Source: Octopus sinensis
Taxonomy: Eukaryota
Length of the DNA: 64,000 bases
Direction of reading: 5' to 3'
Assembly: GCF_006345805.1 (NCBI RefSeq)
Contig: NC_043018.1
Span: 18,104,001 to 18,168,000, forward strand
The translations under genes were made by a program, and so were the position numbers. Positions 31,163-42,902 of the stretch are shown here, in pieces. The notes beneath the pieces are model-generated. The model had not been told where the DNA came from, searched no databases, and worked only from the letters and a program-made list of their open reading frames with translations. Every line of letters starts with the position of its first letter. Positions within the stretch are counted from its first letter, which is position 1.

Positions 31163-32452
31163 GGATGACTGGATATTAAGTTTTAGATGACTGGATGTTA
31201 AAACTTATTTCAAAGCCATGGGGAAGAATTCATCATACTCAGTAACAAAACAAGCAAAGGAATATCATATTTAAGTGAATTCCAAATGCAACAAATCCCA
31301 GAATTAGACGTACTGGAAACAAGCACAGAAAAAGCTAAGCGTATGAAAACCCATGCTAAAACTGCTGCCTTAGATATTCTTACTGATAAATGTCAAGAAA
31401 AACCTCTGAATGGCAAATACCCAAAGAGAGCCAATAGTGACAATATTGATAAATCCCTTACCCATCAATGGTTAGTGTATTCTGGCTTAAAATCAGAAAC
31501 AGAAGGGTTTATCATTACAGCCCAAGATCAATGCCTACCTACAAGAAACTACAAGGAAAACATATTAAAGAACGGCAGTAGCCCAACATATCGTGTATGA
31601 ACAACAAAATGAAACTACTGATCATGTGCAGTCTTCTCGCGCCAACAGAATATTTCAACAGGTATGAGAGGGCAGCACTGTATGTTCACTGGGTAATTTG
31701 CAATAACCTGGACCAGTCCTATGATAAATACTGGTGGGAACACAAACCACCCCCAGTGCTTAAAAATGATCACATCTCACTCTCCTCTGGAGCTTCACCA
31801 TTCAAACTGACAGAAAGATAGGAGCGAATAGGCCAGACATATTGAAAGATTTCAGACAAAAATCATGCCTTCTCATTGATATGACTGTCCCAATCGACAT
31901 AAATGTATCTGTTAAGACCTACCAAAACCTGAGCAAGTATAAAGATCTTGAAATAGAAATTGGCAAAATGTGGAACCTCAAGACTAAAACAATACCTGTT
32001 GTCATAGGTGCCCTAGGAATGATAGCAAGAGGGACTGATTCCTACCTAGTATAGATACCAGCAAAACCCCAAAATGGTAGAAATTCAAAAGATAGTGTTC
32101 ATAGGAACTACCCGTATTCTACGTAAAATGCTGTCTATATAATCTCAGTTTATAAGTCATAGGAACTACCCGTATTCTACGTAAAATACTGTCTATATAA
32201 TCTCAGTTTTTAAGTCATAGGAACTACCCGTATTCTACGTAAAATAGTGTCTATATAATCTCAGTTTTTAAGATAAACTTATAATTTTCTTATGCTTTCT
32301 TTAAACATTCTCTAGAACAATTCTTTGTACAAAAGCAAATGTATAACGCCCCCAGCATGACACCATCATGAACTTCTAGCTTGTTGTCTCTTAATGTCTC
32401 TGGATAAGACATGAAGCCAACTTGTACAGATGTAAAGCAAACGTCAAACATA
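31163..32452 (+). mobile_element. R4/Dong-like LINE 3' fragment (post-RT, zinc-knuckle region, RLE, 3' UTR)
   Basis: LKSETEGFIITAQDQCLPTRNY...HWVICNNL...WWEHKPP...NRPDI...CLLIDMTVPID...LSKYKDLEIEIGKMWNLKTKTIPVVIGALG, with frameshifts; ends in (TAA)n. Confidence 0.92.
32099..32272 (+). repeat. 58-bp tandem triplication spanning the LINE stop codon
   Basis: tcataggaactacccgtattctacgtaaaat...ctcagtt at 32099, 32157 and 32215. Confidence 0.93.
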
Positions 32453-32768: not shown

Positions 32769-33502
32769 GAAATTTTGGGGTGAGGGAAGTTGTAATAATA
32801 ACTGAGCGTTGCTGGTGAGGATTTTTTCCGTTTTTCTCTACGTCGTACATTTATACCGAGAAGAATTATGTAAGAGTCAAGAACCAACTTCTGTAGCATG
32901 GCAACATACACACACACATACACACACAGACATATATGCACACATACAGACACACACTCACTAACAAACACACACATACATATACGTGTGCGTATGTGTG
33001 TATGAAGCTATTCTATTCGAATATCTAAATATATATTAGTTATTAAAAGTGACTTGATAACTTTTTAAGCAATTTTGTTTCATACCTAACTTGACATTTT
33101 CTACTTTTTATTACAAGACTGGCTTCTTCGGCAATATTGCCATTACGTTATATTTCATTACCAGCCATCGCATAAGAACTTTTCCTCGTTAATGTATTAA
33201 ACATGAAATTGAATGTATTTCAGTTTTGGAATTATAATGACTTGTCAAGACCGGATACTATTAATATAAAATATTTATCTAAAGGTCATATACAAGCATT
33301 ACTTTTAGTTTTCAGATATAACCCCATTGACAGGTTATGTTTGAAGGCAATATTTTAATGACCTACATCAATGCTTGTGTCCTTTGTTTAGATCCATAAA
33401 ACAAGAAATGCAAAGTTTAAATAGAAAGAGTGTGAATCGGAAAAGTTTGAACCCAAAACATTCAATCAATACTGAAAGATTTTATACCCGACTCAATAAA
33501 AA

Positions 33503-33562
33503 GTTAAATCTTATACTAACGATATTAAATCTTATACTAACGATATTAAATCTTATACTAAC
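33503..33562. repeat. 21-bp tandem repeat x3
   Basis: ttaaatcttatactaacgata repeated. Confidence 0.85.
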
Positions 33563-33600
33563 TATATCTATTCTGAATCCCATATTTGTTCCGTTTATAT

Positions 33601-33698
33601 GACTACACGTGTTTCGAGGAGGTACGTCGGTATTGATTAGATACAAGGTATCTAGTTTCAATACTTAATCGGGTCGGCATACTCTCAATCTTCAGGTC
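33601..33698 (-). ncRNA. Type I hammerhead ribozyme with intact core and extended stem II
   Basis: GAC-CTGAAGA-[long stem II including gtattga/tcaatac and tagatac/gtatcta]-GAAAC-ACGT-GTA-GTC; stem III is the palindrome ACACGTGT. Confidence 0.72.
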
Positions 33699-33960
33699 TG
33701 GATTCCTCAACATTTTTCACTACCCCTACCTCTTACATACCTCCATGATACTCTATATCTTCATTATAATCTTACTTAACATATACAAATGAATAGAAAT
33801 ACAAATAATGAATAAAAATAATAATTGAATATTAAAAATTTAAGGAGTAAAAATTTAAGGAATAAAAATTCAAGGAATAAACATTTAAGAAAAAAAATTT
33901 AAAGAGAATACGAGTGAAAATTACGAATAAAAGTTACATTCTTCACAGAGAACAGTTATC

Positions 33961-34025
33961 GTTTAGAGAAACTGAAGAGACGTCTAGTTCACGCTAGATA
34001 TGAAACCAATGGGTTTTTACTAAAC
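33961..34025 (+). ncRNA. Type I hammerhead ribozyme with intact core
   Basis: GTTTAG-ag-AAA-CTGAAGA-g-acGTCTAG-ttcacg-CTAGATat-GAA-ACC-aatg-GGT-T-TTT-a-CTAAAC: all three stems close and the triplet is GUU. Confidence 0.68.
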
Positions 34026-34779
34026 TGTTACGGTACACATACGATACACATACAAAAAATATGTATATATATTATGTATATATGTATATATGCATATATA
34101 TGCATATATAAATATACACGCACATATATACAAAAATACATACATACATACTGCATGCGTGTGTGTGTGTGTGTGTGTATAAACATCTGGTTATGTCACC
34201 ATAAAGGCAATTTTTGAGATTTGAGATGCCTTCCTTCCCTTGATGTTGAAAACGCTTTATATACAATATACATAAAGTAGTTGATCGATGGGTAGATATT
34301 TGAGTCCTCTACAGATCGATTGATCAATATATAGGCCCTGTAGAGAATCATCAATATTCTGATAACCTAAGAGAAGGAACTTTATCAACATTTTTTCTTG
34401 CCGAATCCCCGGTGCTGCAACCTTAATTTGTAGTCTGTTTTCATTCTTTTTTTTGTTTGTTCTCCAGAAAAAAAATCATAATTTCATTTTACGTATTGGG
34501 TTGGTAGAGCAATTCATTCACCCTCCCCAATTTATTTTAATCTTTTCCAATATTATTTTAATTAACACGAAAATAATGTTTTATCGTAATATTTTATTGT
34601 TTTTGAGGCTCTATTTCTCTTCCATAAACTTCGTCCATCATTTTTGGAATTTGAATAAATTTACCTGAAAACGCAATATTAGAGAATAGTCATAATTTTA
34701 AGTTTTAAAAAAATTAACCCTGAAAATTTTGATAATTATTAATTTCAATTTGCTGAGAATTAAATTTATTCTGCATTTT

Positions 34780-42469: not shown

Positions 42470-42517
42470 ATTTTTGATCAGGTTCGTTTTTTCAAGAAGA
42501 GCCGAAACATGTAAAAT
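42470..42517 (+). ncRNA. Degenerate hammerhead-like motif
   Basis: ATTT-TTGATCA-GGTTC...GAGCC-GAAAC-AT-GTA-AAAT (2 core changes; ACATGT palindromic stem III). Confidence 0.45.
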
Positions 42518-42605
42518 CTCTAAGAAAATTAAAATTCATCTTATATAGTGGCGTTTTCAAACTTCTTTATATATTGCTAAACCTCGCTAAAATAAATATT
42601 TCAAT

Positions 42606-42674
42606 TACCTGAAGATTGACTGTAACCATAACTCGAATTATTACGAATTGGACAGCCATGAAACGACCGTAGTG
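42606..42674 (+). ncRNA. Hammerhead motif with intact core and weak stem I
   Basis: TAC-CTGAAGA-TTGACTGT...ACAGCCAT-GAAAC-gacc-GTA-GTG. Downstream 42745-42810 matches the reverse complement of 19818-19885. Confidence 0.6.
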
Positions 42675-42902
42675 TTTTACTCATTATCTTTTATTAAACG
42701 TTTAATACTTTTGATATATATTTAAAATAATATAAATTAATTAATTTTATGTATTGGCTTAAGTTTTTCATTGTTTGATTTACCTAATAGTGGTTTTATC
42801 TCTAATTTAATATAATATAATATTTTACTATAAAATTGGATTCAATCCTAAATCTGATTTTTCCCTGTAAGTTTGGATTTATTCCCTAATATTTTATTAT
42901 TA

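Follow-up and report, generated by a model that had tools for sequence, protein, structure and literature searches.

The window analyzed here, a 64,000-nucleotide stretch of the Octopus sinensis genome, carries two divergent hammerhead-like motifs with complete cores, one on the minus strand (33601..33698) and one on the plus strand (33961..34025), 262 bp apart. They lie in copies of two short, non-coding retroelements that are unrelated and abut head to head, and we consider it probable that each motif is a decayed hammerhead of the Penelope-like element (PLE) type that would have cut only as a dimer or with the help of a protein. The preliminary description of this locus, a divergent pair of intact-core hammerheads about 260 bp apart, was accurate, and the long stem II and palindromic stem III that it pointed out in the minus motif are genuine features of fam1, the repeat family in which that motif lies. 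The plus motif lies inside a second family, fam2. It had also been proposed that the pair yields a ribozyme whichever strand is transcribed. What abuts at 33937/33938, however, are two unrelated families rather than the halves of a designed pair, and the look of a bidirectional ribozyme pair would be explained as a by-product of the way in which PLEs insert.

Two element copies and their junction

The left-hand element is one full-length copy of fam1 (33462..33937, sense strand minus), a non-coding, 5'-truncating retroelement of about 475 bp with at least 498 candidate copies in the genome. Identity is 84-92% in the 39 longest of the 42 other matches. In 39 other copies the alignments start at query positions 24-111 and end at 412-418, with one end at 470; in a less biased sample of 37 copies the starts range from 2 to 353. 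The combination of a constant 3' end and a variable 5' end shows that the sense strand is the minus strand and that the element is 5'-truncating. The minus motif is on this sense strand, about 140 nt before the 3' end. The 3' region of the element also holds three copies of a 21-bp tandem repeat (33504..33566, minus strand), the number of which differs among fam1 copies; other copies skip about 33510-33542. At one fam1 locus (L030, G000:C2:121775279-121782563), two GIY-YIG matches lie 1.5-7 kb from the fam1 copy.

The right-hand element is represented by its last 105 bp or so (33938..34042, sense strand plus). It belongs to fam2, a non-coding, 5'-truncating retroelement of about 560 bp with at least 248 candidate copies that are 85-91% identical. 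Copies of fam2 have variable 5' starts and common 3' ends, the longer ones reaching about 560 bp, and ten of them begin at positions 308-323 of the copy L055. The 3' end of the element is about 27 nt past the predicted cut, and a (TA)n or (CA)n tract adjoins it in six of nine full-length copies. In the window, the 3' end is adjoined by an (ATAC)n/(TA)n/(TG)n microsatellite (34043..34183), which is either the insertion target or the tail of the fam2 element. Rfam miRNA models, mir-297 and others, give sub-threshold matches at 34061-34180 (27-53 bits, below the gathering score) on the (TA)n/(TG)n sequence; these look like low-complexity microsatellite artefacts.

A third family of hammerhead-bearing repeats is found further along the plus strand (42568-42900), with a hammerhead-like motif at 42609-42672. 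It directly follows the 5'-truncated tail of a copy of this genome's canonical PLE family, which encodes RT and GIY-YIG domains; the tail carries a worn copy of that family's U3-A8 minimal hammerhead, or min-HHR (42470-42566, plus strand). The third family is young, with copies 95-98% identical and at least 2894 candidates, and it has CUGAAGAUUG and CAUGAAAC in common with fam1. Elsewhere in the window, a 58-bp unit is repeated three times in tandem at 32099-32272, with 95-100% identity between the copies.

Alignments of fam1 stop at 33930-33937, and those of fam2 begin at 33936 in eight of nine loci, so that the two 5' ends meet, with an overlap of 1-2 nt (33936..33939), and the two 3' ends face outward. 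Two other arrangements were considered and rejected. Insertion of fam1 into a resident fam2 copy is ruled out because fam2 sequence is absent to the left of 33462, and the two motifs are not inverted copies of each other, since they belong to different families with no common sequence.

Head-to-head arrangements of this kind recur within the families. BLAST places an inverted arm against the 5' end of fam1 in nine of 29 loci, and visual inspection adds a tenth; one additional head-to-head pair was seen among the fam1 candidate matches. The corresponding counts are three of 29 loci for fam2 (L047, L049 and L066) and 24 of 39 copies for the third family, with 22 of these arms within 40 bp. In all three families, 5' truncation goes along with a second, inverted copy, itself 5'-truncated, that abuts the first at its 5' end, and in the window the pairing is between two different families. 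The paired arms repeat the same 3' part of the element and so are not twin-priming inversions. No head-to-tail tandem arrays of whole units were found among the fam1 and fam2 loci examined. In the third family the outer end of the inverted arm is constant and falls 77 nt short of the end of the direct copy, an offset that looks like the PLE "tail".

This architecture has a counterpart in PLEs. In the sections of Craig et al. (2021, PMC8557442) on which we draw, PLE insertions are described as strongly 5'-truncated and biased toward microsatellites, with a further 5'-truncated copy in inverted orientation at the 5' end, and the PLE hammerhead is placed near the 3' end of the element. Both strands of the DNA are cleaved and extended by a PLE protein, which prefers AT-rich DNA (Frangieh et al. 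2024, PMC11167929). We infer that the window pair is most simply a double-ended insertion, in which a fam1 RNA served one DNA end and a fam2 RNA the other. A PLE-type enzyme may have cleaved both strands of a target that was AT-rich or a microsatellite, after which each 3' end would have primed reverse transcription of a different RNA, one from fam1 and one from fam2. The two cDNAs would then have met in the middle, leaving their 3' ends outward and their hammerhead motifs as a divergent pair. In the source transcripts, the hammerhead may have processed multimeric or read-through RNA, between A17 and G in fam1 and between U17 and U in fam2, and processing of fam1 would have proceeded through an intermolecular 8-bp helix III.

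The hammerhead motifs and their majority forms

On the minus strand, the GAC of the helix I 5' strand (33698-33696) is followed by the core CUGAAGA (33695-33689), a long multi-segment hairpin that forms a three-segment helix II (33688-33616), GAA (33615-33613), the self-complementary octamer ACACGUGU (33612-33605), A17 (33604) and GUC (33603-33601). On the plus strand, the helix I 5' strand (33961-33971) leads into the core CUGAAGA (33972-33978) and one extra unpaired G (33979). An 8-bp helix II with the loop UUCACG and one C.A mismatch comes next (33980-34001), and then GAA (34002-34004), ACC/GGU enclosing a 4-nt loop (34005-34014), U17 (34015) and the helix I 3' strand, a U-run plus CUAAAC, which ends at 34025. 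The full set of core positions (C3 U4 G5 A6 N7 G8 A9, G12 A13 A14, A15.1-U16.1 and H17) is present in both window copies.

Three helices around the core, with helix I open, are found in the majority form of each family; the window copies are weaker. In the fam1 majority form, helix I has 4 bp and helix II has a U.U mismatch ahead of 13 contiguous pairs; two further helix II segments of 7 + 7 pairs extend the hairpin to a rod of about 27 pairs in three segments. Twelve of the 39 other fam1 copies keep the U.U mismatch with at least 13 contiguous helix II pairs; in these, ACACGUGU is perfect, A17 is kept and helix I has no fewer than 4 bp. Our fam1 parser, which demands the palindrome besides the core boxes, passes 25 of the 39 and fails 14. 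When four fam1 copies were cofolded, the MFE of the dimer contained the intermolecular 8-bp ACACGUGU helix III in all four, and the dimers were 9.5-11.5 kcal/mol below two monomers.

The fam2 majority form, from 31 copies, has 11 contiguous pairs in helix I, an 8-bp helix II with a 6-nt loop and three pairs in helix III; past helix II it reads GAA, then ACC(AAU)GGU, then U17. Both core boxes are intact in 25 of the 31 copies, and the helix I pair A23-U81 is kept in 21. The element ACCAAUGGU of fam2 is self-complementary save for its central A. In only ten of the 31 copies does the MFE structure keep at least 17 of the hammerhead pairs and so count as the hammerhead fold. Covariation was absent inside fam2, as is expected for neutrally decaying copies: paired cells make up 91.0%, compared with 91.1% in shuffles, and no pair has changed on both sides.

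Both families depart from the canonical junction, as neither has the G10.1-C11.1 pair that closes helix II and is conserved in canonical hammerheads and min-HHRs alike. In its place, fam2 has an unpaired nucleotide and then A-U, and fam1 has U.U, then U-A, then G-C. The unpaired nucleotide after A9 that characterizes PLE min-HHRs is found in fam1, where it is U, and in fam2, where it is G in 18 copies, U in eight, A in four and C in one of the 31; by reading of the alignment, it is among the most variable positions of the fam2 motif. The palindrome expected at 15.2-16.2 or loop 3 is also found, perfect in fam1 and nearly so in fam2. In the third family, the majority form has a perfect palindrome, ACGAUCGU, at helix III, and the window copy has one change in it. 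The palindromes that follow GAA in fam1 and in the third family differ, and both are perfect 8-nt sequences in the majority forms.

A control for this design is available in the same genome, which contains at least 5029 GIY-YIG candidates. In six of the 30 GIY-YIG loci taken from these there is a U3-A8 min-HHR whose palindrome is ACAUGU, followed by A17, and whose helix I has 4 bp. One of the 30, L078, has an ORF with RVT_1 and GIY-YIG domains, and its U3-A8 min-HHR is about 570 nt after the stop codon. In the copies inspected, these motifs lie about 75 nt before the 3' end, and that end adjoins (TA)n in four of the six copies. Neither fam1 nor fam2 has blastn similarity to the 30 GIY-YIG loci, out of at least 5029 candidates, and both families are non-coding rather than the pLTR of an element with RT and GIY-YIG domains. 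As no coding partner was found, the link to PLEs rests on architecture. The Rfam hammerhead models gave no match in the window at the gathering score, and relaxing the threshold to E<=10 for stretches of 1600 and 116 bases gave none either. The control PLE hammerhead and the best fam2 copy escape the same search; since a bona fide control is missed, the blank result is uninformative for this class.

Are these structures more than chance? We counted motifs with a home-made descriptor (CUGANGA, GAAA, A15.1-U16.1, H17 and minimal helices) in the window and in 100 dinucleotide shuffles of it. With a lenient junction, one motif was observed against 1.07 expected, and with a strict junction none against 0.09. 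When one helix II mismatch was allowed, three were observed against 0.94 expected, the latter being a slight underestimate because helices of 3-5 pairs followed by a mismatch were dropped. A motif count within one window therefore proves nothing. The family majorities are another matter: the contiguous helix pairs that surround the core number 22 in fam2 and 21 in fam1, and 51.2 Mb of shuffled window gave 183 minimal hits, of which the best had 15 contiguous pairs and none reached family-like thresholds. The majority forms are three-helix hammerheads far beyond chance.

These results bear on the simplest alternative, that the likeness to hammerheads arose by chance in ordinary SINE-like repeats that depend on LINEs, with hairpins that serve another purpose or none. 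The lenient count equal to chance would fit that explanation, as would the blank Rfam search, the missing G10.1-C11.1 pair, the absence of covariation and the want of a coding partner. We nevertheless regard it as unlikely. The number of contiguous pairs in the majority forms exceeds anything in the shuffles, perfect 8-nt palindromes stand at the helix III position in two families with a chance of about 1/64 each, inverted duplicated arms are not a LINE signature, and the same design occurs near an ORF with RT and GIY-YIG domains in this genome.

Decay of the window copies and candidates for cleavage

The preliminary description held the two motifs to be the best candidates for still-active ribozymes. 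If both window copies were active and self-sufficient, the transcript of either strand would be cut, and it is true that the core boxes are intact in both and that three helices can be drawn. The structures themselves make such activity very improbable. The parser could score 26 of the 40 fam1 copies, and in the strength of the helix II base the minus copy ranks last of these, at (2,0,3): three pairs follow two unpaired U, where 12 of the 39 others have one unpaired nucleotide on each strand ahead of at least 13 contiguous pairs. Its helix I has three pairs compared with four in the majority. It departs from the fam1 majority at four of six adjacent positions on the 3' side of the helix II base and at two on the 5' side, and its stem III cannot close within one molecule. 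In the plus copy, the C.A mismatch interrupts helix II, and helix I is thrown out of register by a changed G/U run together with a U-to-A change. The hammerhead fold of this copy is at -7.2 kcal/mol and the MFE at -18.5 kcal/mol, a gap of 11.3 kcal/mol. The MFE contains six of the 19 hammerhead pairs and forms AACAGUU/AACUGUU together with pairs that tie up the core, which is the dominant alternative fold (aacagtt/aactgtt) that the preliminary description had itself named as damaging to its reading. The internal loop that it had seen in stem I of the plus copy, and had taken for a site of tertiary contact, is decay instead, as the fam2 majority has 11 contiguous pairs there. Moreover, PLE hammerheads built in this way are described as poor cutters or as dependent on protein: min-HHRs did not cleave as single motifs in the experiments covered by the cited portion of PMC4209133, and cut only with protein in PMC11167929. 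Both window copies are therefore predicted to be inactive relics.

The four substitutions on the 3' side of the helix II base of the minus copy (33616-33625, minus strand) are private to it: three of them are U-to-C on the sense strand, and none of the 39 other copies has them. Among assembled contigs from four presumed RNA runs, searched at 85% likeness, those of other copies cover parts of both repeats; such contigs do not reveal ends, strand or level and so do not bear on cleavage or expression either way.

If the hammerheads of the source elements cut, some insertions might be expected to begin at the cut site. Starts at 335-339 are seen in four of 37 fam1 copies, and the predicted cut would give 335. 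About 1.1 such starts are expected from the local density (P ~0.03, or ~0.10 if one palindromic locus is counted once), and these ends are a weak hint of cutting. In the third family, the start of the inverted arm falls no more than 2 nt from the predicted cut in two of 24 cases.

Alternatively, the structures may act mainly as protein-recognition or RT-initiation elements of the 3' region, with a vestigial hammerhead core. There is precedent in a published PLE (PMC11167929): hammerhead mutants had no effect on insertion in vitro, a stem-loop that lies downstream of the hammerhead was the internal start of reverse transcription, and RNA-seq gave no reads with ends at the hammerhead site. The helix II of fam1, an unusually long rod, would suit such a role, and most insertion 5' ends are away from the predicted cut. 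This explanation, too, seems improbable to us, because complete core boxes are kept in three families and in the canonical PLE, and because a palindromic helix III is kept with different sequences, which makes sense only for dimer formation at a cleavage site. We therefore favor PLE-type hammerheads that depend on a dimer or a protein. For an assay of activity, the third family is a better candidate than the two motifs originally flagged.

Relation to known hammerheads and retroelements

We found no description of hammerheads in octopus or cephalopod repeats in the literature searched, and a paper on octopus repeats (PMC13282606) contains no occurrence of "hammerhead" or "ribozyme". The families described here would add short, non-coding carriers of a cephalopod type to the known range of PLE hammerheads, a class that the Rfam models miss entirely, bona fide control included. 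It is tempting to speculate, though we hold this to be less likely than not, that fam1, fam2 and the young third family form a lineage of dimer-obligate hammerheads, with U.U or A-U in place of G10.1-C11.1 and thousands of copies. The same tentative reading takes the mixed head-to-head insertion as a natural footprint of a PLE enzyme priming both DNA strands with two RNAs, until now shown only in vitro. If variants without G10.1-C11.1 do cut, they would bear on the tolerance of the hammerhead metal-binding junction in protein-assisted or dimeric ribozymes.

Compared with the canonical type I hammerheads of Rfam, fam1 and fam2 have the same core boxes, three helices and an open helix I. They differ in that they have no Rfam match at E<=10, in that fam1 has no stable monomeric helix III, and in that a loop-loop tertiary contact is impossible at these helix lengths.

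The animal non-LTR retrozymes are a second point of reference. They are non-coding, non-autonomous elements with type I hammerheads, proposed to derive from PLE pLTRs, and they are defined by head-to-tail tandem units that each carry a hammerhead (the parts of PMC7229834 and bioRxiv 10.64898/2026.07.22.740005 cited here). Like retrozymes, fam1 and fam2 are non-coding and carry type I hammerheads. Unlike them, they are dispersed single units whose partners are inverted rather than tandem, and we do not class them as retrozymes.

The closest resemblance in design is to the min-HHRs of PLEs, which the cited sections of Cervera and de la Pena (2014, PMC4209133) characterize by a long helix II, an unpaired base after A9, a palindromic helix III and dependence on a dimer. 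The consensus given there is CUGANGAH G...C GAAAN-palindrome-NUH, with G.U in examples from Lottia, and close pairs on opposite strands are noted. The families share with these min-HHRs the type I order, the long helix II, the unpaired nucleotide after A9 and a position near the 3' end of 5'-truncating retroelements. They also share the palindromic helix III, which implies a dimer, and the occurrence of dispersed single motifs together with close pairs on opposite strands. In contrast to PLE min-HHRs, fam1 and fam2 are without the G10.1-C11.1 pair, the fam1 helix II is far longer (13+7+7 pairs), the fam2 helix I has 11 bp instead of 4-5 bp, and the carriers are non-coding units of about 475 and 560 bp alongside which no ORF with RT and GIY-YIG domains was found. 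The canonical PLE of the same genome, the L078 family, differs from fam1 and fam2 in its core, a U3-A8 variant with the G10.1-C11.1 pair, and has no sequence similarity to them. It nevertheless repeats the design in a palindromic helix III followed by A17, a 4-bp helix I, and a hammerhead placed shortly before a 3' end that adjoins (TA)n.
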